Source of the DNA: an uncultured Candidatus Saccharibacteria bacterium
GTDB lineage: Bacteria > Patescibacteriota > Minisyncoccia > Phycocordibacterales > PALSA-1337
Direction: 5' to 3'
Assembly (NCBI GenBank): GCA_964646515.1
Contig: CAZYES010000002.1
Coordinates: forward strand, 1-61,347
DNA length: 61,347 nucleotides
Part shown: piece after piece, positions 1,413-13,940 of the stretch
Layout: every line of letters begins with the position of its first letter
How positions within the stretch are numbered: the first letter of the stretch is position 1
The notes under the pieces: generated by a model
What the model was told of the DNA's origin: nothing
Seen by the model: only the letters and a program-made list of their open reading frames with translations
Database searches by the model: none
Made by a program: the position numbers and the translations under genes

Positions 1413-1701
1413 ATGCAAAAGGTTCAATCCGACGAGCTGTTTCCGACCAGCATTTGACAACTAGGACCAAGCCGAGAATTCTATTACATCATACAGAACG
1501 CTCAGGTTGTTTGTTATTCGCTAAAAGTAGGGATGTAATACTATAGCAACCGTATTCCTAAACGGTCCCACACCCTGGGTGAGGAACACTCGTGCACTAC
1601 GATCCCGTGCACCGGCGTCAAGATGAACCGCCAAACACACTAGCACCGGGCACTAAATTTTGCAAGTAAATGTACCTTGCCTCTCACTGTTTCCGTCTTT
1701 T

Positions 1702-1710
1702 TGCTATAAT
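1702..1710 (+). promoter_or_regulatory. extended -10 box TGcTATAAT, 8 nt upstream of the MazF-like ATG
   Basis: The sequence ttgcTATAATgcgcatcaATG is read directly. No Shine-Dalgarno can fit in the gap. Confidence 0.5.
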
Positions 1711-1718
1711 GCGCATCA

Positions 1719-2123
1719 ATGAAAAAAGATTACAAAAAGTGGCACGAGAAGAAAACGGAAGTTAATGAAGCCGAAGGTACTGCCCTGTTCCACGAACGAG
1801 AGGTATGGTGGTGCACACTTGGAGAAAATATTGGGTACGAGCAAGACGGAAGCAGTGAGCTGTTCACCCGTCCAGTTGTAATCCTAACAAAGTTTAATCT
1901 TGATGCCTGTCTCGTAGTACCTCTTACAGCAAAGCCGAAGAAAGGAAAATACTACTTTGACGTTGGAGATATTTCTGGTCGCAATGCAGTAGCAGTGCTT
2001 TCACAACTACGCTTTGTAGACAGAAAGCGACTTTCAAGCAAAATCGCCACGATGGACCAAGATGTTTTCAAAAATCTCAACAAGGCTGTGGTCAACGCGT
2101 GTTTCCCGGACCCCATAAAATAG
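1719..2123 (+). CDS. PemK/MazF-family endoribonuclease toxin; no adjacent antitoxin ORF
   Basis: REVWWCTLGENIGYEQDGSSELFTRPVVILT...CLVVPLTAKPKKGKYYFDV...AVLSQLRFVDRKRL aligns block-for-block with E. coli MazF (GDLIWVDFDPTKGSEQAGHRPAVVLS...CLCVPCTTQSKGYPFEV...ALADQVKSIAWRAR). Confidence 0.8.
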   Translation: MKKDYKKWHEKKTEVNEAEGTALFHEREVWWCTLGENIGYEQDGSSELFTRPVVILTKFNLDACLVVPLTAKPKKGKYYFDVGDISGRNAVAVLSQLRFVDRKRLSSKIATMDQDVFKNLNKAVVNACFPDPIK

Positions 2124-2127
2124 TTTT

Positions 2128-2149
2128 CCCCCGCTCTTGCGAGTGGGGG
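2128..2149 (+). terminator. GC-rich hairpin directly after the MazF stop; no T-run
   Basis: CCCCCGCTC / GAGTGGGGG form 9 bp including one G.U pair that is valid only on the plus strand; the loop is TTGC. Confidence 0.35.
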
Positions 2150-2424
2150 CAGGCCGAAGCCGTTTGTACCCATAGACTAGCAAATGGCCAGCAATTGTCA
2201 AGTGTATGTACAATTAACCATATGGGGTGATAAAGGTTAAGGCGAAAAATCGAACTGGTTTTACAACTTAAGATATGCGTATATTAATAAGTTCAATTTG
2301 GCGCCGTCGTAGAGCTCTTCGCTTCGCTCAGAGTCTTCGAAATGTTACCTATCCTTCCGTAGCTTTAGTGGAGGAGAAGAAATATATTTGGGTGCAGAAA
2401 TGATGCGGATATTTATATTCCTAA

Positions 2425-2811
2425 TTACAAATAATGACGATTTCCACCTCTTTTTTTATATGCAACGAAACCCCACGACTCCATTATTAACCAAACAACT
2501 AATACAAGAAAAAACATATATGAAAGACTAGAATTAGAAATATTTAGAAAATAAATAAGTACGAATCCCAATACTCCCAAAATAACATCTGCTGATCTAT
2601 TAAATTTTGTCTCATAAATTTTATTGATAATTTCAAAAATCTCCCACGATATCATGGCCAAGAGTGCAATCATAAAGTTGACGACCTCGTCTAATCCCAA
2701 CAAAATTCCGACAATCGCAAGGAGAGTACCAGCGAGAAAATGATTAACGTGCCATAAATCAAAATGTTTTCCATCATTCCAAATTTTAATAAACCATGGT
2801 TGTGAATTCAT
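2425..2811 (-). CDS. hypothetical polytopic membrane protein (about 4 TM)
   Basis: 128-aa ORF with four long hydrophobic segments. Confidence 0.5.
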   Translation of the reverse strand: MNSQPWFIKIWNDGKHFDLWHVNHFLAGTLLAIVGILLGLDEVVNFMIALLAMISWEIFEIINKIYETKFNRSADVILGVLGFVLIYFLNISNSSLSYMFFLVLVVWLIMESWGFVAYKKRGGNRHYL

Positions 2812-2845
2812 TACTAATAAATCTTAACAGGTCAGAACTGAAAAG

Positions 2846-3100
2846 TCATTGCAAAATATTTGCATCCAACAATTTCAATCTCTTTTCTCTTCTCCAGCCT
2901 TTGATTTCAGCTTCCCTCTTTCGAGCTTCTTTGAGCGAAGGAAATTCTTCGGAATATAGTAACGTCACTGGCCGTCTGATTTTTGTATAGTGAGCGCCTT
3001 TTTTGGAGTTGTTGTGTTGAAGCACCCTCCTTTCCAAGTCATTCGTGGAACCGACATACAATGAATCATCGGAGCATTTTAGAATATAAACGTAATACAT
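2846..3100 (-). CDS. GIY-YIG nuclease-family minigene
   Basis: MYYVYILKCSDDSLYVGSTNDLERRVLQHN...EAEIKGW shows the GIY...YIG-type core with the conserved Arg and Glu. It ends in TGA. Confidence 0.8.
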   Translation of the reverse strand: MYYVYILKCSDDSLYVGSTNDLERRVLQHNNSKKGAHYTKIRRPVTLLYSEEFPSLKEARKREAEIKGWRREKRLKLLDANILQ

Positions 3101-3126
3101 GGTATTTCTGAATTATACTATGCCCT

Positions 3127-3224
3127 CGCTTCGCTCGGGACCTTCGTCGCTAATAAAACATTATTAAAATCTGAAAAACACCGTGGTCGAAGACCCTGAG
3201 GAGCGAAGCGACGAAGGGGTCCCC
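3127..3224. repeat. interleaved GC-rich inverted repeats upstream of the GIY-YIG gene
   Basis: A = CGCTTCGCTC (3127-3136) has an exact reverse complement GAGCGAAGCG at 3201-3210. B = GGGACCTTCGTCGC (3137-3150) pairs with GCGACGAAGGGGTCCC (3209-3224). The order A-B-A'-B' is a crossing, pseudoknot-type arrangement. Confidence 0.6.
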
Positions 3225-3367
3225 TACTGTATAGATTTAGAACTCTTCGAGCCTGAGGTCATTCGACTCCGAGAGTCTCAGACTCTAGGAGCTCTCGGAG
3301 CCGATGGCCTGTTTGAGATAAAAAGGCCACAGATTTTACTCTGCGGCTGTTTGAAAGTGTTTGTTTC

Positions 3368-3649
3368 CTAGCGACTAATTGCCACTATCCACGGCAGTAG
3401 TACCCTCCAGATTGTTATTCCCGCCATAACTATGGGGACTATTACTCCAAAGGAAGCAACAAATTTCTTGAATCCGCAGCTTTGCGAAAAACCCTTACCC
3501 CAAGTAATGAAAACGAAGAAATTAACGACGAGTTGAAGGATTCCTGCAAGAACAGCGGAGCCATTGAAAATTGTCGTGAAGTTTGCAATCAGGAAGAACA
3601 CAAAGCCTGCAATTCCTGAAACTGCCATAAGCTTTGAATTAGTTTTCAT
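3368..3649 (-). CDS. hypothetical small membrane protein (3 TM)
   Basis: 93-aa ORF that is strongly hydrophobic. Confidence 0.45.
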   Translation of the reverse strand: MKTNSKLMAVSGIAGFVFFLIANFTTIFNGSAVLAGILQLVVNFFVFITWGKGFSQSCGFKKFVASFGVIVPIVMAGITIWRVLLPWIVAISR

Positions 3650-3696
3650 AACTCTGCTCTAAATCATAGCACGACTAAGATTCTACTGTCAACTTG

Positions 3697-3769
3697 GGTG
3701 CCTATCGGGATTTGAACCCGAACTGGAGGTTCCACAAACCTCAGTGCTAACCATTACACCATAGGCACC
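3697..3769 (-). tRNA. tRNA-His (anticodon GTG) with encoded G-1
   Basis: The minus strand reads G-GTGCCTA TG GTGT-AATGGTTA-GCAC T GAGGT TTGTGGA ACCTC ... TTCGGG TTCAAAT CCCGA TAGGCAC C. G-1 pairs with C73 as expected for tRNA-His. Confidence 0.85.
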
Positions 3770-3802
3770 ATATGATTTCACCTTACAACCCCTAGCCACA
3801 AT

Positions 3803-4354
3803 TTACGCATAACTTGGCGGTACCTCATTTATACCAGATTTGTGGTTCACAAGTCGAGCCAGAGCATAGAGGAGAGATGAGAGACGATTCAAGAAAGCAA
3901 GGGTAGCATCACTCACCAAGACTTCCCCGCTATCGAAGCCATCAACCACTCTACGCTCGGCTTTGCGCGCCAAAGTTCTAGAGAAATCAAGAAGTGCTGA
4001 CAATTCCGTGCCACCAGAAACAGAGAAGAATCTTATAGGGGGCATTTCTTTTTCGGTGGCGTTGATGATATTTTCCATCTCTTTTACATTCTTCTTACGA
4101 ATCGTCTTCCTGGCTCCAGCAACTTCCGCTTGCACTGTAAATAAACAATCCTGACAAAAAACCACGATCGTCGCTATCTTCTTCCTCATAATTTTCCAGC
4201 CAACCGTGACAGACTTCAGCTTGACCAACCCTAAAAATGAATTGAGTTCATCTAGCGCACCCAGTGCCTCGGCCACTTTGGAGCTCTTGGAAAACCTCTG
4301 ATCGCAGTCAAATTTATTGGTTTTGCCATCATCGCCTTTTCCGGTATAAAGCAT
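3803..4354 (-). CDS. PduO-type ATP:cob(I)alamin adenosyltransferase family protein
   Basis: The N-terminus YTGKGDDGKT...ALGALDELNSFLG and the C-terminal LNRLSSLLYALAR match the PduO/MMAB signature. Confidence 0.75.
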   Translation of the reverse strand: MLYTGKGDDGKTNKFDCDQRFSKSSKVAEALGALDELNSFLGLVKLKSVTVGWKIMRKKIATIVVFCQDCLFTVQAEVAGARKTIRKKNVKEMENIINATEKEMPPIRFFSVSGGTELSALLDFSRTLARKAERRVVDGFDSGEVLVSDATLAFLNRLSSLLYALARLVNHKSGINEVPPSYA

Positions 4355-4419
4355 ACCTATAGATTAGAATTAACTTCTAAAAATGCAAGTACCACCGATA
4401 ATTACCAGACTTCCAATTG

Positions 4420-4790
4420 AGGGCTAGAATTCATATAGTAGAAAAAATGAGATTATGCTTCGCCGAGCAGGACATATTTACGTCTATTTCACCTACGGCA
4501 TGCATTGGACGTTGAATATCGTCGCGAGACCAAAAGATTATCCGACCGCAGTACTCATTCGCGGTGGAATAGTTTTCAAATCAAATAAAACATTCAATGG
4601 TCCTGCGAAATTGACCAAAGCACTTAAGATTAATAGTACCTTGAATGGGAAAACGCTTTCGAAAAAAAGTGGGCTATAGATCGAAATACCCAAAAACAAG
4701 ACCGCTTTCAATATCCTCAGATCAAAGAGAATCGGCGTTGATTACGCAGGACCAGCGTGAACGCACAAAAAGTGGAGATCCCTTATCCGT
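4420..4790 (+). pseudogene. decayed DNA-3-methyladenine glycosylase (Mpg/AAG family) remnant
   Basis: GHIYVYFTYGMHWTLNIV...AVLIRGG...GPAKLTKALKI is the Mpg core. An in-frame TAG (4677-4679) is followed by IEIPKNK...RIGVDYAGPA, then an in-frame TGA (4758-4760), then THKKWRSLI. The upstream RIHIVE fragment is in another frame, and most of the N-terminal half is missing. Confidence 0.65.
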
Positions 4791-4793
4791 CGA

Positions 4794-6962
4794 TTAATGA
4801 GTCGAGTACCACGCTCTAGCCGCGTCAAACATTGACGCGGTCAAATTGTTTACAGACCAAAGGTCAACACCACTTAGACCCGCCCTCAGAACATCTAGGT
4901 TCACCGACCCCGTACTTTGATTATAGACTTTCTCATACCACGAATGGAGTTCACTTGTGCCACTACTTACCACGCAGCTAGGAACACGCCCTAGTATTTG
5001 CTGGAAAATCTGAATGATTTGTTGTTTTGTTTGATACTCTATACCAGACACCATCCCCTGTTTAACAGCGTTAATATCACCATAACTATTACTCCAGTAG
5101 TCCCAACCTTGTGAATCTGGTTCGCGGCACTGCAAATCTAGATAAAGCTGTCTGACTTGATCACGACTGACTCCAGTTACACCGCCAAACTGCACATATT
5201 GCTGTCCTCCGGCACCGATGGTTTCCACATAAATTTTGTACTGATTGCTACTAGTTACCAAACCTGAAGGTACTGTCCAGTAAATTCCATTCTCCCCCAC
5301 ACCAACAGCCCTTATAGTACTAATCCCCAAGACATTGATCCATGTCATTCCTTGAAGTTCATATAGGGAAACTCTGGTCACATCTTTTGTGTTTGTCTCG
5401 CTCCATTTTATGTAATATGTGTTTCCTTTTTGAAGATTGGTTGTCCCAATACCATTCAAAGAAACCGTCACGGCATCAATGGTAGGGTTCGTGGTAACAG
5501 ATCCTACGCTAACTGTCGCACTCGTCTCTGCGGTCTGGCCACTTGCATTCCTAACAGTAAACGTCGGCGTATAAGTGCCTGACTGATAATATGAATGAGT
5601 AAATGTGGCATTCTGTACAAACGAAGCCGTGGTTGGGGCCTGATTCGTACAAGTGTATCCGGTAGGACAATTGAAATCATCGCCCCAATTTACCGAGTAA
5701 CTCAAGCTACTATTCTGTGGATCATACGCATTAACAGTCCATGTTCCTTGTTGATTGACATTGAGCTGAGTTGGAGCGGTCACACCAGTAATTACAGGGG
5801 ATTGGCTGGTGCTAGCTGGGTAGTAAAACTGAAGTGCGTTACTCCAGGTGTCACCATAACCGACCTGAATATCATAAATACTCGTGTCAGCAGGTAACGA
5901 CGGCATATAAAACATAATCTGTGTTGCGGAAGATTGGTTTGGAATGATACTTACCCTGAACGCTGTTGCGGAAGATTGGTTTGGAATGACACTTGTCTCG
6001 AACCCCTTACCTGAAACTCTCACAAAATTACCCTTCTGAAAGTTGCCACCGTTTATCGTAACGAATGTGCCCGAAGTGCCGAAACTTGGATTGAGGGATG
6101 AAATATAAGGGCCATTCTTTCTGTCTACTACGATAGAAAAAGATCCAGAATACACCTTCTCTTCTGTCGTTCTATCATTAACTACCGTATTCTTGTATAT
6201 CGCGATCCGAATCTGACCAGTTACATAGGAGGGTGGTATCCATGAATAACGACACACTCCTTTACCATAACCAATGCAACCAGCTTTAGCTTGTGATAAT
6301 CCGGAAGCTATGACGCCTCCTTTTTCCGGTATATTTGGAAGCTCCCATTGAATATTGAATGTGTCGCTACCGCTCCACATTCCACTCCAGGTAATCGGGA
6401 CTTTTGTGCCTTCCATGTATACATCACCTTGTTTGGGAGATATTACAGTCATTGATCCCGGAACCGTACCCGGAACGCAAGACGAATTGACCTTTGTCCT
6501 GGTTAGAGGTCCAAAGAAACCTGTCGCAGGAATACCTACGCTGGATTGATACCCCTTCAAGGCTAAGTATGTTGAATTACCAAAATATCCTTTGGCACTA
6601 TCAAAGCCAACGGTTAAATCACTTATAGTGAAACCTTGAGCAACCAAAAATGTCTGGAGTGCCGCCACATCCGCCCCAACAGATCCTAGTTGTAGGTTAG
6701 CCGAAAAATTGTAGCAAGATTGGGTGGAAGTTGAAATGGGTATTGGTACAGGTGTCGGTGAGGGACTAATTGGTGTGGGCGTGCACACAAATCCTGAAGG
6801 ACAACCAGCTGGTTGTACTGGGATAGGTGTACAAGTATAACCAACAGGACAAACAACCGGTGTTGTCGCTGTCTGTGCATTGGCATATTCTGGTATATTG
6901 ATAACGACCGACAAAGCAAATATCGTTAGTGTAATCGCGAACGAAAATATGATTTTTTTCAT
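4794..6962 (-). CDS. secreted multidomain surface protein (signal peptide, Cys-rich CPxGYTCTP motifs, PG-binding-like, IPT/PKD-like repeats, DUF4214-like C-terminus)
   Basis: Signal peptide MKKIIFSFAITLTIFALSVV...ANA. PG_binding-type segment GSVGADVAALQTFLVAQGF...GYFGNSTYLALKGYQ. PKD-like segment WGDD...FTHSYYQSGTYTPTFTVRNASGQ. Confidence 0.7.
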   Translation of the reverse strand: MKKIIFSFAITLTIFALSVVINIPEYANAQTATTPVVCPVGYTCTPIPVQPAGCPSGFVCTPTPISPSPTPVPIPISTSTQSCYNFSANLQLGSVGADVAALQTFLVAQGFTISDLTVGFDSAKGYFGNSTYLALKGYQSSVGIPATGFFGPLTRTKVNSSCVPGTVPGSMTVISPKQGDVYMEGTKVPITWSGMWSGSDTFNIQWELPNIPEKGGVIASGLSQAKAGCIGYGKGVCRYSWIPPSYVTGQIRIAIYKNTVVNDRTTEEKVYSGSFSIVVDRKNGPYISSLNPSFGTSGTFVTINGGNFQKGNFVRVSGKGFETSVIPNQSSATAFRVSIIPNQSSATQIMFYMPSLPADTSIYDIQVGYGDTWSNALQFYYPASTSQSPVITGVTAPTQLNVNQQGTWTVNAYDPQNSSLSYSVNWGDDFNCPTGYTCTNQAPTTASFVQNATFTHSYYQSGTYTPTFTVRNASGQTAETSATVSVGSVTTNPTIDAVTVSLNGIGTTNLQKGNTYYIKWSETNTKDVTRVSLYELQGMTWINVLGISTIRAVGVGENGIYWTVPSGLVTSSNQYKIYVETIGAGGQQYVQFGGVTGVSRDQVRQLYLDLQCREPDSQGWDYWSNSYGDINAVKQGMVSGIEYQTKQQIIQIFQQILGRVPSCVVSSGTSELHSWYEKVYNQSTGSVNLDVLRAGLSGVDLWSVNNLTASMFDAARAWYSTH

Positions 6963-7390: not shown

Positions 7391-7621
7391 ATGAATGCTT
7401 TGAATTCCTTGTTTGTCGCAATCGTGGTAATCATGATTATGTCCTTTGGTACAGGGCTAATTCTTGGAGGACCCGAGAAAGCGACGAAGATCCTTACGTG
7501 GGAGCTCAAACAGCTCACCAAATTTGGCCGATGGGTACTGAAACATTTTTTTCAGACCATGTCGGATCTCTTCAGGTATCTTGCAAAAGCATGCGGGCCA
7601 CAAAAGAAGAAGACACCCTAA
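7391..7621 (+). CDS. hypothetical small membrane protein
   Basis: 76-aa ORF with an N-terminal TM helix (LFVAIVVIMIMSFGTGLILGG), followed by a strong hairpin. Preferred over the overlapping ORF 7372..7767. Confidence 0.4.
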   Translation: MNALNSLFVAIVVIMIMSFGTGLILGGPEKATKILTWELKQLTKFGRWVLKHFFQTMSDLFRYLAKACGPQKKKTP

Positions 7622-7628
7622 AACTACA

Positions 7629-7654
7629 GGCGAGCAGTTTCAAAACTGCTCGCC
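7629..7654. terminator. bidirectional hairpin between convergent genes
   Basis: GGCGAGCAGTT TCAA AACTGCTCGCC, an 11-bp perfect stem. Confidence 0.6.
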
Positions 7655-7768
7655 TTAACCTTTATTATTGTGCGCAGTTAGATACTTTACTTGAACTCTT
7701 TGATATTATCACAAAGACCTCGATACGTTTTTGGTATATACTTATTTGTAATTATGTCAAAAAATAAA

Positions 7769-8119
7769 TTACTGTGGGTCCTTACCGACTTGAGCAAGCC
7801 ACAACTTAAATGGTTCAGCTTTCGGAGATGGAATAGATTGGATAATGCGTAAAATACCCCGCAAATCAGCACAGCTCATCTTCTGTCGACCTCCTTTTGT
7901 CATTATGTCAAGGGTATGTACAATTTGTATCCACCCTTGACTAAGTTGCTCGTCGCGTTCTCTCATCCTTTGAACGTACTGTTTTGCATCATTCGACTCA
8001 ATAAGCGCTAACACTATATCTTCCACTACAAAATACCACCGCTCTTTGTGCCATGCTCGACGAATTTCGTGCGATTCGAAAAGTGCAATTGATTTTGATT
8101 CCTGTTCCTTCTTTTCCAT
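7769..8119 (-). CDS. phage-type Bro-N/KilA-N-like DNA-binding domain protein, probably C-terminally short
   Basis: IRRAWHKERWYFVVEDIVLAL...RIIQSIPSPKAEPFKLWLAQVG resembles the N-terminal module of prophage antirepressor-like proteins. This family call comes from memory of the motif, not from a search. Confidence 0.45.
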   Translation of the reverse strand: MEKKEQESKSIALFESHEIRRAWHKERWYFVVEDIVLALIESNDAKQYVQRMRERDEQLSQGWIQIVHTLDIMTKGGRQKMSCADLRGILRIIQSIPSPKAEPFKLWLAQVGKDPQ

Positions 8120-8199
8120 GCCACAATTTTCTCACTCCCAAAAGAAAAAACAATATTGACTACTATAAATATCAGTGCGGTATCACGAATAAATTTCTG

Positions 8200-8373
8200 G
8201 TGCGCGGGAGAGGACTCGGCTTCGCCTCTCGGCCGACCAGTCGTCCTCGGGCTAGCCACCGGCTCGCGGCTCGGCTTGCTAGCCTCGCACGCTGCGCCGT
8301 TCTCGTCCCTCCTTGCGTCACAATGATGCTCCACTCGGAGGCATAACATGCCTCCTCGTGGATCATTGTGCGC
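8200..8373. repeat. left 174-bp direct repeat (19-nt tRNA-Leu 3'-end copy plus 149-nt GC-rich module X plus GTGCGC)
   Basis: Compared base by base with 13688-13861 and found identical, at an offset of 5488 bp. Confidence 0.95.
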
Positions 8374-8417
8374 CGTCTGGAACGTTATTAGAACGGAGTT
8401 AAGTCTCGCAAGTTCAC

Positions 8418-9725
8418 CTATCTGTTATAAATAGCTTTCTCTGATCGTGCTTCAACTTCCTTCTTATATTCTCTTCGTGGCTTTTTCTTTTCCGCATCCA
8501 TTGCAAGCACGAATTCACGCTTCTTATCGGGTGAAAACTTACTAATCGTGCCTACCATTTCTTGCATCTGCTCGGGAGAAAGTGGATCTATCAACTCAGA
8601 AAAAGCGAGAGCTTGTGCTGCTGTTCTCACATCACCAGCATCTAAAGCAGCCAAACCGACGCCTTTTAATACCCGAGTACTTTCCATCGGATAATCATGA
8701 AAATCTAAAGCCCTATTTATGGCACCTTCCTTTTTTCTGTAGTCAAATACATTATTGACCCTTTCAGTCAGACCACGAATGAGTTCGTCGGGTTTTTCAA
8801 TTTTTTGATTCTCTTGAGTGACGTTAAAGCCGCCATTTTTACCTTTTTGCCGAAGCCCCTGACCATCTTTCAAAGCCTCTCTGTCTCTCCTCATCAGGTC
8901 TGCGAGCTTGTTCGGATCGTTGAGCTCTGCTATCTGATTTTTAAGATATTCAATGCGACGAGATGTCTCACCTCTCTTATAGGTTAAATAATCTTCTTTT
9001 TGTTTTGGTGTCCTTATAGAATCATTGGTATACTCGCCACTTGTAATGATTAGTTCCTCATTTTTAAGGGCAATTTCTTCTCTATCAATAGTCACCTGTA
9101 GAACACCTTCAACTGACCTTTTGTACAAATCAGGGTTTCCTGAGATAACAGCATAAGCTTCTTTGCCAGTGTCAATATCTGACGTCGCGATAAGTTTTTC
9201 TGCGGCCTTATTCAGTTCTGCCATTTGTTTTTCGCGCTCAACCTTTTCCTTATCTATCGGTTTAATGACACCCCCTTCCATCGTAAAACCTTTTGATTTG
9301 AATTCTTCATGAAAACGAGAGTTTTCCGCGCCCAAGGCTTGAAATTCTGGAGTAGATGTCCATGCGTCTCCAAATTTCTTATGACCTTCTTCATATTTAG
9401 CTTTCAACTCCGCATGTTTTTGTTGCAATTCAGCCAATACTGGGTCTTCATTTTTTGGACCAGTTGTCTCGCTCTCAGCAAGACCTTGAATATCTGTTGA
9501 ACTGGCAGCAGTTGATTCAACTCTCACCTCCTCCTTGCTGTCAACTTTAATTTCCTCTTGAAGACCTTTAAGCAAATCTTCCATATTCGCCGGTGTTGCT
9601 TCACTAGTTGGTTCAAGTATTTCAGGAGACGAAGTATTCCTTTTGGCTTCGTCTTCTTGACGGGCTTTTTCTAATAATTGATCCAGGCTTGGAGTTGATG
9701 AACTTTGTGGATTTTCTATGCTCAT
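8418..9725 (-). CDS. hypothetical acidic coiled-coil protein (element cargo)
   Basis: The ORF track begins at a TTG (9761). The first ATG (9725) gives MSIENPQSS... No recognisable domain. Confidence 0.5.
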   Translation of the reverse strand: MSIENPQSSSTPSLDQLLEKARQEDEAKRNTSSPEILEPTSEATPANMEDLLKGLQEEIKVDSKEEVRVESTAASSTDIQGLAESETTGPKNEDPVLAELQQKHAELKAKYEEGHKKFGDAWTSTPEFQALGAENSRFHEEFKSKGFTMEGGVIKPIDKEKVEREKQMAELNKAAEKLIATSDIDTGKEAYAVISGNPDLYKRSVEGVLQVTIDREEIALKNEELIITSGEYTNDSIRTPKQKEDYLTYKRGETSRRIEYLKNQIAELNDPNKLADLMRRDREALKDGQGLRQKGKNGGFNVTQENQKIEKPDELIRGLTERVNNVFDYRKKEGAINRALDFHDYPMESTRVLKGVGLAALDAGDVRTAAQALAFSELIDPLSPEQMQEMVGTISKFSPDKKREFVLAMDAEKKKPRREYKKEVEARSEKAIYNR

Positions 9726-9831
9726 AGAATTTATGTTAAAAATTGATAATTGTTTGAACAAGATCGATATGATTTGACTGACATAATAATACCACGTCTT
9801 CCGATAAAAGTGGCAGTCGGTTTTTGATCTT

Positions 9832-10133
9832 CGCCCCGCCCGTATCGGCTTTGGAGGGTAGGCGGTGCGCGAGCCGCTTTTGAGATGAGAACGCGTCTAC
9901 TTCCGCCCGTCACCACGAAACCTATTCGCGCCTAGCTCCTGTTGGTGCTGCGTAGCGCACCCCTATTGCGATCAGCAATTGGGGAAATGCGCGAAGCAGT
10001 ACGAACAGGAGCGTAAGGCGCGCCACATACCCTCTTAGGGCGGAAGTGGGCGCGTTCGTACTCTCGCATGTCACACGCTCCCGAAAAAGCGGCCGCGCAC
10101 GGCCTGCCCGGAAAAGCCGTTTGGGGCGGGGCG
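9832..10133. other. ~300-nt GC-rich, multiply nested stem structure (candidate single-strand origin or structured RNA)
   Basis: Nested perfect helices: 9832-9841/10124-10133 (10 bp), 9846-9852/10113-10119 (7), 9900-9908/10038-10046 (9), 9927-9932/10017-10022 (6), 9935-9943/10004-10012 (9), plus two terminal hairpins at about 9944-9961 and 9960-9984. Line 10081-10140 is 72% G+C. Confidence 0.65.
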
Positions 10134-10174
10134 CCACAGACGCAATCAATATTCATTGGTGTTAAACTATATGA

Positions 10175-11017
10175 ATGGATCTCCTCATAGCTGAACTTAA
10201 CCACAAATATTCAGAATTTTTAACTGCCATCGAAAGACACAGCCTCTGTAGGACTTCCAGAGCTGTATATGAATACTTTGATCTTGTTCAAGGACAGAAA
10301 ACCATACAGAAAATACTGGAAACTGACAGGCAAGAAATTGCTACTCGTAAGGCCATTGTAAACTCTGGTACCAGTTCAACCCAGGATAGTCGAGACGAAA
10401 TCGTGAGACGAATCGAAAGGAATTCGCTCACATATAGCCATGATTTAATTTACAACAAAATGTATGCGCCCATGAAGGCATACAAGGAATCTACCGATCA
10501 CAATGATGAGAAGGTACTGACCGGCATGTCTTTATTGTTTCAAAACGAATCTATTTCTGGAAAACTGATGGGTACTTGGGATCAATTCAAATTATACTGC
10601 GCACTGGATGACTTAGTTATTTGGATGGAGAGAATCCACGCGACTCTCGTAAAAAAGTTGCTTGAAGTAGAGAAACCAGAACCTGTGATTGCTTTTGATG
10701 CGCCGAACAAAATTAAGATCGTTATTGATGACCGCAAAGGTATTTACCAGGCTGACAAAGAACAGAATGCTTATGGTATTGAGAGAGACAGCAACAGAAT
10801 GAAACTGATCGAGCACCTCATTTCAAAAGATAACTGTGGCATCGCAGAGTTAGAAGAAATTACGGGTCAAGCGAGAAACGTCACCATAAAATCAATAGCG
10901 AAAATTAACGAGCTATTTAGAGAATATTTACATCTTGTTGACGATCTGATTCTTAGCTTGAAGACAGGTGGCTATTCGCTCAACAAGGACGTTTTCGACA
11001 TTATCGTGAAGCCGTAA
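10175..11017 (+). CDS. hypothetical protein with a possible C-terminal winged-helix/HTH tail (element cargo)
   Basis: 280-aa ORF with an ATG start. The C-terminal CGIAELEEITGQARNVTIKSIAKINELF looks HTH-like. Followed by a terminator. Confidence 0.5.
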   Translation: MDLLIAELNHKYSEFLTAIERHSLCRTSRAVYEYFDLVQGQKTIQKILETDRQEIATRKAIVNSGTSSTQDSRDEIVRRIERNSLTYSHDLIYNKMYAPMKAYKESTDHNDEKVLTGMSLLFQNESISGKLMGTWDQFKLYCALDDLVIWMERIHATLVKKLLEVEKPEPVIAFDAPNKIKIVIDDRKGIYQADKEQNAYGIERDSNRMKLIEHLISKDNCGIAELEEITGQARNVTIKSIAKINELFREYLHLVDDLILSLKTGGYSLNKDVFDIIVKP

Positions 11018-11047
11018 CCTTTAGGTGTTGTTGGTAAGTCCAGCCTA

Positions 11048-11073
11048 GGCGTCTAAAATACGCCCTCTTTTTT
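11048..11073 (+). terminator. intrinsic terminator
   Basis: GGCGT ctaaaat ACGCC followed by CTCTTTTTT. Confidence 0.55.
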
Positions 11074-11122
11074 GCATGAAGGTCATCTAACGGTTCATAT
11101 TGAAAATTGCGACCATTATCTC

Positions 11123-11326
11123 ATGGCACACCAATTCAGCCATGAGCTAACACAACGAGCACAGACATACTTCGGGGAAAAATCCGGTCGAGATATTTCA
11201 CATGAAGAAGCCAATGAGTACATGAACAGTCTGGCTAGCTTGTACGAATCGTTTATGGAATTGGCGGTGGCCGGCGGGACTGCTTCCGATGCTTTAGCGC
11301 GGAGCAGTCCGCCGGCAGTGCTTTGA
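11123..11326 (+). CDS. hypothetical small protein (element cargo)
   Basis: The track ORF starts at TTG 11072. The in-frame ATG at 11123 gives MAHQFSHELTQRAQTYF... The 3' end overlaps the conserved-loop hairpin. Confidence 0.4.
   Translation: MAHQFSHELTQRAQTYFGEKSGRDISHEEANEYMNSLASLYESFMELAVAGGTASDALARSSPPAVL
11270..11316 (+). repeat. conserved-loop hairpin, copy b (loop ATGCTTTAGCG)
   Basis: GCCGGC-G-GGACTGC-T-TCCG [ATGCTTTAGCG] CGGA-GCAGTCC-GCCGGC, about 17 bp with two single-nt bulges. Confidence 0.6.
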
Positions 11327-11366
11327 TGACTTGCTAGAGACCTAACCTAAGACAATACAGAAAACA

Positions 11367-12191
11367 ATGGGCTACAACAAAATCGTCACCTACGGAAACA
11401 TAATTGAAACATTCACATATGCAAGAGATCCCAATATTCCTCCAAGAACACAAAGAAGACATTCGTGCCATGCTGGAATTCCTGGTGCTTCAGATGATGC
11501 TGGCTCTGTCGATGAACGAGAGGCTTTCGAAGGCAAGCGCAAGGACAACGCAGACCGCGCTTCAATGGTTTTTCGACAACTCGTCCTCGCTAACCTTACA
11601 GGAACTGAATATCCTCTACTCCTTACTGCGACGTACCGGGACAACCAAACGGACTTACGCCAAGGCTACAGAGATTTCGGCGCTTTCATCCAGGCTATGC
11701 GCTATCGATTTGGAAAAGAATGGCGGTATATTGCAGTCCCCGAATTTCAAAAACGTGGAGCTGTTCATTTCCACGCTCTCATCTGGGGATTACCCACAAG
11801 TGTGTTTGAAGAAGAGCGATCTACCCGATTGGTTGCGGGACTCTGGAAACATGGATTTGTTTACCTCAAAATGACCGATGGGAATGAAAAGCTATCGTCA
11901 TATCTGACCAAATACATGGCTAAATCATTTGTAGACAGAAGACTCATGAATCAGAAAGCATATGTCTGCTCAAGAAATCTGAAGCGGCCTCAAGTCGTTG
12001 GCCACATTTCAAAATTCAGCATTGATACTTACCTAGAAGAATGTGGTGTGACTGATCCGGAAATCGACAACTCATACGAAACGCGTTGGCTTGGAACAGC
12101 ACGCCACCGCATTTACAAGCTCTCCACAGAAAATCCACCGAAACAAAAATTGTCCGAAGAAAATATTGAGAGTACAATTCCGTTAACTTAA
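11367..12191 (+). CDS. HUH-superfamily rolling-circle replication initiator (Rep)
   Basis: Motif I LLLTATY, motif II (HUH) AVHFHALIWG and motif III YLTKYMAKS, with two Tyr spaced YxxKY, occur in the canonical order. Confidence 0.75.
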   Translation: MGYNKIVTYGNIIETFTYARDPNIPPRTQRRHSCHAGIPGASDDAGSVDEREAFEGKRKDNADRASMVFRQLVLANLTGTEYPLLLTATYRDNQTDLRQGYRDFGAFIQAMRYRFGKEWRYIAVPEFQKRGAVHFHALIWGLPTSVFEEERSTRLVAGLWKHGFVYLKMTDGNEKLSSYLTKYMAKSFVDRRLMNQKAYVCSRNLKRPQVVGHISKFSIDTYLEECGVTDPEIDNSYETRWLGTARHRIYKLSTENPPKQKLSEENIESTIPLT

Positions 12192-12233
12192 ATTATTTTT
12201 TATTCTCATTATCAACATAACCATATCAATCAC

Positions 12234-13814
12234 ATGAAATACATTTTGTACTGTAGAAAATCCACTGATACTGAAGACAAACAGGTGCTTTCCCTTGAAT
12301 CACAGGAGAAGGAGCTTACCGATCTCGCCAAAGACCGGAATCTTGAAATCGTCCAAATTCTCACTGAAAAGAAATCTGCCAAAGCTCCCGGCCGCCCTGT
12401 ATTTAACGAAATGATGACTGCCATTTCTGCCGGCAAAGCCGACGCTATTCTCTGCTGGAAAATTGATCGCCTGACGCGTAACCCCGTTGATGGAGGACAG
12501 ATCCAATGGCTACTTCAAAACGGCAATATCAAGTGTATCCAGACTTCAGAGAAAACATATTTGCCTAGCGACAATGTGTTGTTAATGAGCATTGAGCAAG
12601 CTATGGCTAACCAATACATTCGCGATTTGAGCACGAATGTAAAGCGTGGAAATAGAGCCAAACTTGAACACGGCGGCTGGCCTAATCATGCACCGTTTGG
12701 CTATCTTAACGACAAAGCTAGCAATTCAATCATCTTGGACAAGAAACATTCTAAGTATGTGCCACGCATATTTGATCTCTACATTACCGGCGCTTACAGC
12801 CTGCAACAGATTTCAGATATTCTCTTCAAAGAGGGTCTTCGCACCTGCTCCGGGGACAAGGTACGCAAGGGAAAGATTCATAAAGTCCTGTGCAATAAAT
12901 TCTATATCGGCCTCATGGAAAGAGACGGCAAAATCTATCAAGGCAATCACGAAACATTGATCTCAAAATCCACCTTCGACAAAGCCCAAGACATTCTCTG
13001 TGGCCGCATCCATTCACGAAAACGCAATCATTTCTATTCAGCCCGAGGATTCCTGCAATGCGCCTCCTGCGGCTGTAATTTAACCTGTGACACCAAGAAA
13101 GGATTCAAGTATTACTACTGCACCAACGGCAAGGGCAATTGTGAACAGCATAAAAAATACATGAGATCTGAATTCATTGATGAACTGCTGGCCAAAATGT
13201 TCCTTAATCTCAAATTCGACGAGCAACTCATTCAAATGTCCGCTGATGCTTACAAAGAATCCAACCAGAGCAAGATTGATTACACACAATCGGCTACTGA
13301 TGCCCTCACAAGCGAGCTACAAGCCCTCACAAAGAAAGAATCTGTCTTAACCGACGGATATGCTTCTGAAGTCATTAAACCTGATATGTACAAGCAGAAG
13401 ATGTTGGAAATTGAAAACAAGAGAGCCGAGCTACAAACACAGCTCACAGAAATTCAGTCAAAGGGACCAGTCACTCAAGTTACTTTCGAACAGATCAGGA
13501 ATATTTTTATGGACGGCAACAGGGCCTCGGAAAAGTATATGGCCTCCGGAGATGAAGCAAAACGAAATATGCTGTCAAAGCTACTTTCGAACGCAACCAT
13601 CAAAAATCGAGAAGTGGCGCAGTACCAATTCAAAAGCCCGTATCAGGTGCTCGCGGAAACACCCAAAAACATTGATTTTGAAAAATTGTGCGCGGGAGAG
13701 GACTCGGCTTCGCCTCTCGGCCGACCAGTCGTCCTCGGGCTAGCCACCGGCTCGCGGCTCGGCTTGCTAGCCTCGCACGCTGCGCCGTTCTCGTCCCTCC
13801 TTGCGTCACAATGA
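12234..13814 (+). CDS. large serine recombinase (integrase)
   Basis: N-terminal resolvase-type catalytic region YCRKSTDTEDKQVLSLESQ...ILCWKIDRLTRN; recombinase domain; zinc ribbon CASCGCNL...YYYCTNGKGNC; coiled-coil C-terminus. The last ~42 codons and the stop lie inside the right 174-bp repeat. Confidence 0.85.
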   Translation: MKYILYCRKSTDTEDKQVLSLESQEKELTDLAKDRNLEIVQILTEKKSAKAPGRPVFNEMMTAISAGKADAILCWKIDRLTRNPVDGGQIQWLLQNGNIKCIQTSEKTYLPSDNVLLMSIEQAMANQYIRDLSTNVKRGNRAKLEHGGWPNHAPFGYLNDKASNSIILDKKHSKYVPRIFDLYITGAYSLQQISDILFKEGLRTCSGDKVRKGKIHKVLCNKFYIGLMERDGKIYQGNHETLISKSTFDKAQDILCGRIHSRKRNHFYSARGFLQCASCGCNLTCDTKKGFKYYYCTNGKGNCEQHKKYMRSEFIDELLAKMFLNLKFDEQLIQMSADAYKESNQSKIDYTQSATDALTSELQALTKKESVLTDGYASEVIKPDMYKQKMLEIENKRAELQTQLTEIQSKGPVTQVTFEQIRNIFMDGNRASEKYMASGDEAKRNMLSKLLSNATIKNREVAQYQFKSPYQVLAETPKNIDFEKLCAGEDSASPLGRPVVLGLATGSRLGLLASHAAPFSSLLASQ

Positions 13815-13861
13815 TGCTCCACTCGGAGGCATAACATGCCTCCTCGTGGATCATTGTGCGC
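13688..13861. repeat. right 174-bp direct repeat, fused to the tRNA-Leu 3' end
   Basis: Identical to 8200-8373. Its last 6 nt are the first 6 nt (on the plus strand) of the genuine tRNA 3' end. Confidence 0.95.
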
Positions 13862-13940
13862 GGGAGAGGACTCGAACCTCCATGCCCTAATGGGCGCTAC
13901 CACCTCAAGGTAGTGCGTCTACCAATTTCGCCACCCGCGC
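13857..13940 (-). tRNA. tRNA-Leu (anticodon GAG), long variable arm
   Basis: The minus strand reads GCGCGGG TG GCG-AAATTGGTAGA-CGC A CTACC TTGAGGT GGTAG CGCCCATTAGGGCATG GAGG TTCGAGT CCTC T CCCGCGC A; 84 nt. Confidence 0.9.

Follow-up and report, generated by a model that had tools for sequence, protein, structure and literature searches.

The window, a stretch of 61,347 nt, contains five intact-looking open reading frames beside a tRNA-Leu(GAG) gene, bracketed by two direct repeats with an offset of 5488 bp, the whole forming an element of 5.3-5.5 kb. The repeats with their coordinates and the five reading frames, as given by an earlier reading of the sequence alone, were borne out. The features are as follows:

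8200..8373, strand not applicable: left copy of the 174-bp repeat R, 100% identical to 13688-13861
8365..8401, + strand: attL, consisting of the identity block ATTGTGCGC (8365-8373) and then the conserved P' arm CGTCTGGAACGTTATTAGAACGGAGTTA (8374-8401)
8418..9725, - strand: 435-aa acidic protein (pI 5.2, 19% D+E), variable cargo
9826..10141, + strand: rod-like structured element of ~315 nt, supported by DNA fold, conservation and strong covariation
10175..11017, + strand: p280 (280 aa), core protein built of a helical domain at the N terminus and a winged-helix DNA-binding domain at the C terminus (AlphaFold2 model, conservation)
11123..11326, + strand: p67 (67 aa), small acidic core protein, directly upstream of rep in >30 relatives
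11367..12191, + strand: Rep, HUH rolling-circle initiator of the two-tyrosine class, 274 aa (PF23343, 2.8e-21; phrog_3419, 1.3e-28)
12234..13814, + strand: large serine recombinase (LSR), 526 aa, with Resolvase, Recombinase and Zn_ribbon_recom domains (phrog_95, 8.5e-86)
13660..13693, + strand: attR side, consisting of the P arm CACCCAAAAACATTGATTTTGAAAA and then the identity block ATTGTGCGC (13685-13693)
13688..13861, strand not applicable: right copy of repeat R, the last 6 nt of which overlap the first 6 nt of the tRNA 3' end
13856..13940, - strand: tRNA-Leu(GAG), intact integration target, CCA not encoded (ARAGORN; Rfam RF00005, 52.4 bits)

The profile searches proposed as a check on the sequence-only reading revealed both the HUH/Tyr homology of Rep and the catalytic serine-recombinase domain. 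The three rolling-circle motifs of Rep occur in the expected order (LLLTATY, HFHALIW and YLTKYMAK, starting at residues 84, 134 and 179), and the catalytic residues H134, H136, Y179, K182 and Y183 are invariant in an alignment of 20 homologues. At E <= 1e-3, the structure model of Rep hits 242 models of viral Reps (G2P, gene A, microvirus). In sequence it shares ~30% identity with the Reps of Ralstonia inoviruses and of small rolling-circle plasmids from Gram-positive bacteria, and Pfam RepSA gave a weak partial match to the element (32.5 bits, cutoff 34). The LSR aligns to SPbeta integrase structures and carries Ser10 in an N-terminal YCRKS; both enzymes are presumably active. As noted earlier, no capsid, relaxase, coupling protein or tyrosine integrase is seen, none being matched in Pfam or PHROG, and the assignment to a CPR host is backed by a PolA 73% identical to that of Ca. 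Paceibacterota. The claimed G+C enrichment of the element failed: its 43.4% compares with 41.8% for the window, in which 5.3-kb windows span 39.0-45.6%, and the two 60-nt lines on which the claim was based had been counted correctly (51.7% and 38.3%) but are not representative. The only G+C-rich parts are the repeat (66%) and the ~315-nt intergenic hairpin (63%).

Among the remaining proteins, p280 is conserved in relatives (33-83% identity), and a profile search retrieved 342 cluster representatives, 26 of them full-length. Its suspected HTH-like tail corresponds to the C-terminal winged helix of the AlphaFold2 model (pLDDT 83), which matches OmpR/AdeR/CadC-type domains. For p67, no family match was obtained in Pfam or PHROG, and the protein is a candidate directionality or regulatory factor. 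The 435-aa protein, correctly described as acidic, has neither a Pfam or PHROG match nor a homologue in any related locus and is the sole member of its 90% cluster.

The hairpin lies upstream of the p280 gene in all of the ~15 relatives in which it was found, at 68-77% nucleotide identity, and its DNA fold is far more stable than expected (z = -10.4). In the consensus, 38 of 81 pairs show compensatory changes, and 95% of cells pair, compared with 85.5% in shuffled alignments (0/500 as high) and 33-50% with partners slid. Since G-U-type cells greatly outnumber A-C-type cells (70 versus 14), the + strand is the folded one. As candidate roles of the hairpin we regard those of single-strand origin, of packaging signal or of both, and alternatively that of a structured RNA. 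The last of these, a transcribed RNA serving as 5' leader of a p280-p67-rep-LSR operon or as a stand-alone ncRNA instead of a DNA origin, has a realistic though minority chance of being right: the operon downstream has the folded strand as its sense strand, the p280 start codon is only 33 nt away, and one U-G pair is retained in 14 of 16 sequences. However, no Rfam family matched the hairpin, and it is the only conserved non-coding block in a replicon of a type that requires a single-strand origin, which is the role we presume for it.

The element is not a one-off but belongs to a family of more than 70 loci, mostly in Patescibacteria: a related Rep was found in 116 loci, and in 74 of these an LSR lies directly downstream. 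Among the 63 LSR ORFs that are complete, 49 overlap a convergent tRNA gene, most often one for Gln (23) or Glu (8), followed by Ile, Tyr, Trp, Leu, Asn and others. Family elements measure 5-8 kb and differ in their cargo, in which Shedu, GmrSD, transporters and type II restriction-modification systems occur. The family would ferry genes for defence and transport from one of these tiny bacteria to another. A published description of such a family was not found. We consider it likely that the window contains a plasmid-like element of Patescibacteria in its integrated state, probably still able to move, which the LSR would integrate and the HUH Rep would replicate as an excised circle. Transfer functions encoded by the element were not detected in the Pfam and PHROG searches, and its passage from cell to cell by some route is presumed.

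This lack of transfer genes would also suit a satellite or defective derivative of Patescibacteria inovirus-like phages, which replicates as ssDNA with its own Rep, is packaged by a Zot helper and uses the hairpin as packaging signal or minus-strand origin. The Rep is indeed 36-55% identical to those of five circular genomes of 5-6 kb (L114, L115, L116, L120, L064) encoding a Zot ATPase (PF05707), a pIII-like protein of 490-535 aa and small membrane proteins, and, like the intergenic hairpins of inoviruses, the hairpin adopts its fold on the + (coding-sense) strand. On the other hand, homologues of Zot, coat or pIII proteins are missing from every locus with Rep and LSR, the hairpin was undetected in the Zot-bearing genomes, and the viral collection contributed none of the Patescibacteria Rep-LSR loci; in IMG/VR, an LSR stands beside Rep in only two loci (L128, L129), and their Reps share no more than 24-28% identity with the one here. 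A satellite-like ssDNA replicon, as suggested earlier, is conceivable given the related Reps in Zot-encoding inovirus-like circles, although its packaging would be hypothetical; we regard a phage satellite as rather unlikely and retain the integrated plasmid-like element as the preferred reading.

How such an element would integrate is indicated by its ends. The P' motif forms the left end in 12 genome-locus relatives at different tRNAs and in 20 metagenome loci, and it occurs once in the window, where 0 chance matches are expected. The P arm, which codes for the C-terminal ..TPKNIDFEK of the LSR, abuts the tRNA 3' end in 49 of the 63 relatives with a complete LSR ORF. The conserved LSR protein stops at about residue 485, and the last 42 codons (13688-13814), overlooked by the sequence-only reading, are read-through into the right repeat. 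In the window and in eight relatives (L031, L034, L040, L049, L060, L063, L071, L166), attL and attR are identical over 3-11 nt only, spanning the last tRNA bases; in the window they have only ATTGTGCGC in common. With the conserved arms locating the true LSR crossover in this 3-11 nt block at the last tRNA bases, the LSR-defined element comprises 8374-13687. As attP lies inside the LSR ORF, integration would exchange the C-terminal tail of the LSR (13-22 codons). Neither ~45 sister-sample loci nor 20 metagenome loci nor IMG/VR yielded an attP junction, with P arm, identity block and P' arm in a row, and LSR-mediated excision is therefore unobserved.

The 174-bp repeats themselves were considered as the product of integrase crossover and rejected, since the relatives place attL at 8365-8373|8374 and attR at 13685-13693. 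Each repeat begins, as described earlier, with a 19-nt copy of the tRNA 3' end (8200-8218 and 13688-13706; within the tRNA, 13856-13874), followed by a G+C-rich spacer and a tRNA-trailer hairpin (8315-8373 in the left copy) ending in GTGCGC. Folded as RNA, the repeat reaches z = -6.2, and its trailer-hairpin part recurs as the B arm in three relatives (L037, L155, L162). The repeat is best described as a 168-bp host-side unit duplicated on either side of the element, not as an integrase footprint. A host-side unit is likewise present on both sides of a relative at tRNA-Tyr (L033), which hints at a systematic cause.

Circular junctions and empty sites, the other check proposed, were both present at contig level in sister assemblies. 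Sister metagenomes contain an empty tRNA-Leu site with a single repeat copy (L011/L020, L015), in contigs from two samples that run from the flank through the repeat to the tRNA side, and one contig (L006) joins the two ends of the element via one repeat. Another (L138) closes into a circle of exactly 5,488 unique nt through a terminal overlap of 127 nt, and the point at which it is broken falls within rep. In sample 3300076256, a 60-kb chromosome contig crosses the empty site while the element occurs only as 2-3 kb fragments. Since the repeat, at 174 bp, exceeds the largest assembly k-mer (127) and probably the read length as well, these contigs rest on the assemblers' read-pair logic and are suggestive of gain and loss of the element, not proof. 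Gain and loss in the sister samples are best explained by recombination between the 174-bp repeats, for which a homologous, RecA-type exchange, as the presumed mechanism, is most likely rather than canonical attL x attR excision.

The same length of the repeat would be compatible with a decayed island fixed in the chromosome, flanked by a local duplication, whose empty site and circle are alternative walks through one repeat node of the assembly graph. Many contigs (L003, L004, L007, L008, L010, L016) end within the repeat, as an unresolved repeat would predict, and the missing attP junction fits as well. We nevertheless consider such an island improbable, given that all five ORFs are intact and identical in more than 10 samples, that the empty-site path is embedded in a 60-kb contig from a sample with a fragmented element, that L138 closes on itself away from the repeat and that the two repeat copies, being identical, point to recent exchange. 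Size and gene number would allow an integrative mobilizable element (IME) in which Rep serves as the relaxase on an oriT and conjugation machinery supplied from another locus brings about the transfer, and streptococcal IMEs, which combine serine or tyrosine integrases with Rep-related relaxases, offer a precedent. This is nevertheless very improbable, as Rep is a PF23343 protein of the phage gene A / G2P type and not a member of the Rep_trans MOB_T family, conjugation genes are absent from the window region and the related loci examined, and conjugation systems appear to be rare in Patescibacteria.

The initial interpretation as an integrative rolling-circle replicon with an LSR at tRNA-Leu, in a CPR host and of no described family, therefore stands, given the profile matches together with the empty-site, junction and circle contigs in sister samples. 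For this plasmid-like element we propose that attP, made up of P arm, short identity block and P' arm, is contained in the 3' end of the integrase gene, and that the integrase recombines it with the outermost 3' bases of a tRNA gene (tRNA-Leu in the window), leaving the tRNA intact. The LSR ORF would then run antisense into tRNA-derived sequence, and the far end would bear the conserved P' arm. On the circularised element, Rep would nick an origin, although no nick site or double-strand origin was identified in the element, and the displaced + strand would be converted to duplex DNA at the hairpin as single-strand origin. p280 and p67 would act as core accessory or regulatory proteins, and exchangeable cargo occupies a slot of divergent orientation between the P' arm and the hairpin.

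Several known systems resemble the element in part. AICEs are likewise small, integrate at the 3' end of tRNA genes and excise before rolling-circle Rep replication, but they use a tyrosine integrase with Xis, a long tRNA identity segment and an FtsK-like transfer gene, whereas the element has an LSR, a target identity of 3-11 nt, no transfer gene and a host from another phylum. Firmicutes serine-integrase IMEs of 5-18 kb also combine a serine recombinase with an HUH-type initiator and variable cargo; their initiators, however, are relaxases (Rep_trans/MOB_T or MOB families) acting at oriT for conjugation, in contrast to the phage-type gene A / G2P Rep described here, which has no evident conjugative partner. 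Filamentous phages that integrate, together with their satellites (CTXphi/RS1, Ralstonia Rs551/RSIBR3), share with the element the integrated life of a replicon of ssDNA type; those of Ralstonia have Reps of a related family, and CTXphi forms repeat-flanked arrays able to yield circles. The element differs from them in lacking Zot and coat genes and in using its own LSR, not XerCD at dif.

Prochlorococcus tycheposons are small tRNA-targeting integrative elements of streamlined genomes in which a site-specific recombinase is joined to exchangeable cargo and to a module for replication; they line up in arrays at tRNA hot spots, and there are subpopulations without the element or with a circularised one (bioRxiv 10.1101/2020.12.28.424599). 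In that study, tyrosine recombinases were present in 910 of 937 tycheposons and cryptic elements, and the replication modules are primases, helicases or polymerases instead of an HUH Rep. The large serine integrases of temperate phages (SPbeta SprA, phiC31, Bxb1, A118) share with the LSR the Resolvase and Recombinase domains and a Zn ribbon with coiled coil, as well as short asymmetric sites with few common bases and an attP adjoining the integrase gene. In the family described here, by contrast, integration targets the last bases of tRNA genes, attP is contained in the integrase ORF so that its C-terminal codons are exchanged, and the carrier is a small rolling-circle replicon instead of a phage.

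The element is bounded by two 174-bp direct repeats (8200-8373 and 13688-13861) which are, as the sequence-only reading had stated, 100% identical and spaced 5,488 bp apart. A tRNA-Leu(GAG) gene (13856-13940, minus strand) adjoins the right repeat. Each repeat opens, at 8200 and 13688, with the 19-nt copy of the tRNA 3' end (GTGCGCGGGAGAGGACTCG, plus strand), of which a third copy stands at 13856 in the tRNA gene itself. The five open reading frames (ORFs) described between the repeats were likewise borne out.

Features of the integrated element
8365-8401, attL, the left junction
8418-9725, minus strand, p435, 435 aa
10175-11017, plus strand, p280, 280 aa
11123-11326, plus strand, p67, 67 aa
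11367-12191, plus strand, Rep, 274 aa
12234-13814, plus strand, large serine recombinase (LSR), 526 aa
13660-13693, attR-side site, on the LSR and tRNA side

What had been taken for a G+C enrichment of these genes did not hold, with 43.4% for the element against 41.8% for the window, in which 5.3-kb windows span 39.0-45.6%; this comparison rules out a G+C contrast as a sign of foreign origin. The only G+C outliers in the locus are the repeat (66%) and an intergenic hairpin (63%). The PolA of the host is 73% identical to that of Ca. Paceibacterota and 67-68% to that of Ca. Taylorbacteria, and the host is, judged by its sequence, a Patescibacteria (Paceibacteria) bacterium. A PemK-family toxin gene, a GIY-YIG gene and the gene of a 722-aa PG_binding_1 surface protein occupy the left flank at 1700-5600 (mapped from the genes of locus L001), all of them outside the element.

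The rolling-circle initiator and the recombinase proposed earlier were both recovered in profile searches. Rep matched PF23343 (REP_ORF2-G2P; 76.1 bits, cutoff 27.8) and phrog_3419 (1.3e-28), and its motifs follow each other in the order claimed, namely LLLTATY from residue 84, HFHALIW from 134 and YLTKYMAK from 179 with its two tyrosines spaced YxxKY; H134, H136, Y179, K182 and Y183 are invariant in an alignment of 20 homologous sequences. The AlphaFold2 model of Rep (pLDDT 79) gave 242 BFVD matches at E <= 1e-3, the best being a G2P-domain protein (2.1e-15), and the viral initiators matched, all of them predicted models, include G2P, gene A and microvirus Reps. Against the PDB the model gave weak matches to AAV, circovirus and geminivirus Rep domains (E >= 0.03), and a PDB sequence search with Rep returned no match. 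In tblastn, Rep is about 30% identical to the Reps of 1.5-8 kb Gram-positive plasmids and of Ralstonia inoviruses. Rep is firmly predicted to be an HUH rolling-circle initiator of the phage gene A/G2P class, with nicking and joining as its predicted activities. The catalytic domain of the LSR was found with Resolvase (4.4e-23), Recombinase (3.5e-13) and phrog_95 (8.5e-86), and Zn_ribbon_recom scored 23.5 bits, just below its cutoff of 25.3. Its N terminus reads YCRKS with Ser10, and residues 48-458 align to SPbeta integrase structures; it is firmly placed in the large serine recombinase family, and its activity is predicted. In the sister-sample locus L018 (3790-5012, corresponding to 12603-13814 of the window), which is 99.8% identical in nucleotide sequence, the LSR gene is called in two pieces, one of 217 aa and one of at least 122 aa; this copy may have been inactivated by a frameshift.

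The attachment sites can be read from the ends of the element. On the P arm, the element-side half of attP at the tRNA, the conserved end of the LSR (..SPY..LA..PKN plus 6-8 aa) reaches precisely to the 3' end of the tRNA, beyond which LSR ORFs run antisense into the tRNA for 3 to >60 codons. The P' arm motif CGTCTGGRACGWTATTAGAACGGAATTA lies at 8374, at the opposite end of the element, and recurs at the left ends of eleven homologous loci (L031, L033, L034, L037, L040, L046, L047, L049, L060, L063 and L071) and at 20 more metagenome loci with mutually unrelated host-side arms. Identity between attL and attR extends over only 3-11 nt, and the P and P' arms are conserved among relatives at different tRNAs. 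The crossover blocks (ATTGTGCGC in the window, TGTGCGCCG in L040, TGTGC in L063, CTG in L060 and TGCTGGG in L071) always cover the last tRNA bases (about positions 70-74), and their intersection suggests a crossover at the discriminator/72 dinucleotide. Such a short shared block is the signature of a serine and not of a tyrosine integrase. The arms therefore set the LSR-defined element at 8374-13687, or 5,320 bp counting one GTGCGC core. The target tRNA genes of the window and its relatives encode no CCA. Since the P arm takes the place of the native 3' trailer directly after the base following the discriminator, integration alters the 3' trailer of the tRNA precursor.

The 174-bp repeat consists of a 168-bp unit and the 6 nt that follow it, and the element in the window is placed between two such units. 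The unit starts with the crossover hexamer and 13 more nucleotides of the tRNA 3' end, together the length of an integrase half-site, continues with a G+C-rich spacer of about 100 nt, in which ARAGORN and Rfam found neither a degenerate tRNA nor a known RNA, and closes with a hairpin ending ATCATT/GTGCGC. This trailer hairpin forms, without the spacer, the host-side arm of attL in three homologous loci (L037, L155 and L162), and it is the native tRNA trailer. That the whole repeat is a product of integrase crossover is ruled out by the conserved P and P' arms and by the simple junctions in seven relatives (L031, L034, L040, L049, L060, L063 and L071). Locus L033, at a tRNA-Tyr gene and with an LSR 87% identical to that of the window, shows a window-like arrangement with a unit of about 170 bp in flanking copies 97.7% identical; its sequence differs from that of the window unit except for the common motif TTCTCGTCCCTC, and a third, partial copy followed by a relic attL is present. 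Locus L040, with an LSR 91% identical, has plain junctions. The unit may have been duplicated by slippage between the 19-nt copies that made a second pseudo-attB, by aberrant excision capturing a unit, or by exchange between alternative insertion states, each of which is possible. Locus L028 has, between the P arm of its LSR and a tRNA-Gln gene (10263-10490), an insert of 225 nt that is rich in G+C and starts with a degenerate P'-like sequence; a spacer of a second kind separates integrase gene and tRNA there.

Identical element proteins were found on contigs from more than ten metagenomes of one JGI series and in Logan assemblies. With the left flank, repeat, element and tRNA side abbreviated F, R, E and T, the path F-R-E (integrated, left side) occurs at 18 loci, E-R-T (integrated, right side) at nine, F-R-T (empty site) at three on two contigs from samples 3300076256 and 3300076255, and E-R-E at two (L006 and L138). 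L138 is a 5,615-nt contig with a 127-nt overlap of its ends and a break point inside rep; the overlap counted once, it is 5,488 nt long, exactly R plus E with zero mismatches. In sample 3300076256 the empty site lies inside a 60-kb contig, and the element is present there only as contigs of 2-3.4 kb. Thus the circular junction and the empty site for which a search had been proposed are both present in sister assemblies, but the joins run across a repeat longer (174 bp) than the k-mer used (k = 127), so that F-R-T and E-R-E depend on the read-pair resolution of the assembler, and many contigs end inside R. The evidence that the element is a population polymorphism with a circular (or tandem) form is good but not conclusive. 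Among the sister samples, strain-level indels were also seen: L019 has 72 additional nucleotides at about 7334, and L015 is without 65 nt at 3245-3309 (indel region 3244-3310).

Canonical excision by attL x attR recombination would yield a circle of 5,320 bp, closed by a junction of P arm, identity block and P' arm (predicted attP junction CATTGATTTTGAAAAATTGTGCGCCGTCTGGAACGTTATTA), and leave two units in tandem (predicted unit/unit junction CTCCTCGTGGATCATTGTGCGCGGGAGAGGACTCGGCTTCGCCT). Neither junction was found in any contig examined. In the metagenome contigs, a collection evidently without the source samples, the exact P-arm pattern had no match and the P' pattern hit 20 loci, all of attL type and none excised; a search of viral contigs for the attP junction had no match, and the loci of five related Rep proteins, most on contigs of about 5 kb, showed integrated or truncated forms only and no excised attP. 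The alleles seen, an empty site with one unit and a circle of 5,488 bp, are the reciprocal products of an exchange between the two repeats. A published account (PMC3783163) reports that serine integrases recombine only attP with attB, or attL with attR together with a directionality factor, and on that account homologous recombination between the 174-bp repeats is the favoured origin of these alleles. An unconventional LSR reaction on sites with one common arm would be conceivable as a second route.

A feature of the integrase gene itself emerged when attP was reconstructed for nine elements by joining P arm, 6-nt core and P' arm. In all nine, the reading frame of the LSR stays open across P' and stops 10-22 codons further on, with a conserved tail (e.g. 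LCAVWNVIRTEL.., LCAVWDVIRTEL.., LCALWDDIRTEL.., LLRVWDSIRTEL.., LLGVWDCIRTEL..). The P' arm encodes the motif [VL]W[DN]x[IV][RG]TEL, which recurs in frame at 33 attL sites. Since attP lies within the LSR ORF, integration swaps the conserved tail for tRNA-antisense codons, in the window for 42 codons of the repeat; the predicted attP form of the window LSR has 506 aa, against 526 aa when integrated. Third-codon positions in the attP tail are as conserved as the other positions, which clearly points to constraint on the DNA site itself. In the literature searched, we found no serine integrase described as having attP within its own gene; an analogy is known among tyrosine integrases, in the SSV type of archaeal viruses. 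To our knowledge, Patescibacteria are largely without conjugation. It is an improbable, speculative idea that the tail swap is a built-in state sensor setting directionality without a separate factor and that the elements are, additionally, single-stranded DNA satellites of Patescibacteria filamentous phages, which would make them the main vehicles of defence-gene exchange in the phylum. If this were true, the state of the tail would distinguish an integration-competent from an excision-competent enzyme.

Among the remaining proteins, p280 is modelled (pLDDT 83) as a helical domain at the N terminus followed by an OmpR/CadC-like winged helix at the C terminus, and its profile search returned 342 cluster representatives, of which 26 are full-length and about 300 have only the C-terminal module in common. 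The small p67 is conserved in relatives without a family match. The acidic p435 had no homologue in any search made and is missing from relatives, and we therefore regard it as cargo. The 400-nt gap between p435 and p280 holds a rod-like hairpin (9826-10141; DNA fold -116 kcal/mol, z = -10.4), kept in about 15 relatives at 68-77% nucleotide identity and always just upstream of p280. Its consensus from a 16-sequence alignment has 81 pairs, of which 38 show compensatory changes. The fraction of cells that pair is 95%; shuffling the columns gives 85.5% (none of 500 shuffles came up to 95%), and sliding the partners by 1-3 columns gives 33-50%. Wobble-type (G-T) cells number 70 against 14 A-C cells, an excess which marks the plus strand, the sense of rep, as the folding strand. 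The strand that rolling-circle plasmids displace, or filamentous phages package, is normally rep-sense and bears a long, orientation-dependent structured origin for complementary-strand synthesis. By this analogy, we read the hairpin as a candidate single-strand origin. A structured RNA leader in place of a DNA origin is a live alternative; neither hairpin nor repeat matches any Rfam family, and scans for sigma-70 promoters and terminators gave no informative signal. A Rep nick site or double-strand origin was not found in the element. Placing the nick site within the repeat, with CTXphi-like copy-out between repeats, is judged unlikely because the repeat is not conserved among relatives, being absent from L040 and, save for one short motif, different in L033.

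A scan of one genome per species returned 132 stretches with a relative of Rep, and the best 80 of these 132 belong mostly to Patescibacteria (Taylor-, Nomura-, Zambryski-, Campbell-, Magasanikbacteria and others). Among all loci fetched, Rep is encoded in 116 and directly followed by an LSR in 74, and 49 of the 63 complete LSR ORFs enter a tRNA gene of convergent orientation (Gln 23, Glu 8, then Ile, Tyr, Trp, Leu, Asn and others). The cargo slot, which lies between P' and the hairpin, invariably has the opposite orientation and holds, in relatives, Shedu SduA, TdeIII-type restriction-modification with two methylases, GmrSD with an EcoRI-type methylase, ABC and MFS transporters, or secreted proteins. 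We found no description of a Rep+LSR element family in the literature searched.

Traces of further insertions were seen around these loci. At 7619-7696 of the window, ATTATTGTGCGC and a degenerate arm resembling P' (AGTTAGATACTTTACTTGAAC) come after a hairpin of terminator type (7619-7664), and the whole looks like a relic attL of an older insertion. ATTGTGCGC has five copies in the window against 0.48 expected, four of them in this locus. Directly outside attL (7769-8199) stands a gene for a Bro-N-domain protein, preceded by a conserved region (CAATTTTCTCACTYCCAAAA..). It occupies the corresponding position in two unrelated metagenome loci (L149, 2454-2850; L157, 3291-3700), and in L157 its flank is joined directly to a P' arm; it may be a small non-autonomous element travelling with, or targeted by, the Rep+LSR family. 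Distal to the full element, L033 (266-2860) and L037 (3439-4540) carry relics of attL. Behind each relic come a few genes, among them a similar ORF of about 200 aa starting MKPDEPK..IYIDDSNLY, and then a further G+C-rich unit copy. These distal regions consist of decayed insertions arrayed at hot spots in tRNA genes.

The genomes of Patescibacteria are tiny, few mobile elements have been recognised in them, and their gene exchange is poorly known. A widespread family of 5-8 kb elements that targets the terminal bases of a variety of tRNA genes and bears Shedu, restriction-modification, GmrSD and transporters would be a concrete vehicle of gene exchange in this group. It also provides dozens of natural serine integrases that target conserved tRNA ends and whose attP/attB pairs can be read from sequence; such enzymes are of interest for genome engineering and for genetic tools in CPR bacteria. 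It poses two puzzles, an integrase C terminus that depends on the integration state and the nature of a large, conserved structure, single-strand origin or new RNA.

Five circular genomes of 4.8-6.2 kb (L114, L115, L116 and L120 from IMG/VR, L064 from GTDB; terminal overlaps of 121-141 nt) encode a Rep 36-55% identical to that of the window, a Zot-like ATPase, a pIII-like protein of 490-535 aa and membrane proteins of 84 aa, and no LSR; they look like putative filamentous phages of Patescibacteria. Their Zot and pIII-like proteins had no tblastn match in any Rep+LSR locus, and the ORFs of the element gave no Pfam or PHROG match to a Zot/pI ATPase or coat proteins, so that the element differs from an Inoviridae-like prophage, which has both. 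An AICE of the pSAM2 type has a tyrosine integrase with Xis, RepSA and an FtsK-like Tra protein, whereas the element has a serine recombinase, RepSA scored below cutoff and a Tra protein is absent. An integrative mobilizable element (IME) has a relaxase with oriT and a conjugative helper, and the element ORFs are without a MOB-family match. As had been suspected, the element could not be assigned to a described family; it belongs to neither the AICEs nor the tycheposons, and probably not to the IMEs, because it differs in integrase class, in Rep class, in host and in having no transfer genes. With pSAM2-type AICEs, serine-integrase IMEs and tycheposons it nevertheless has in common the combination of integration at a tRNA site, autonomous replication and exchangeable cargo, and by analogy with these systems it would work, in function, like an integrative plasmid.
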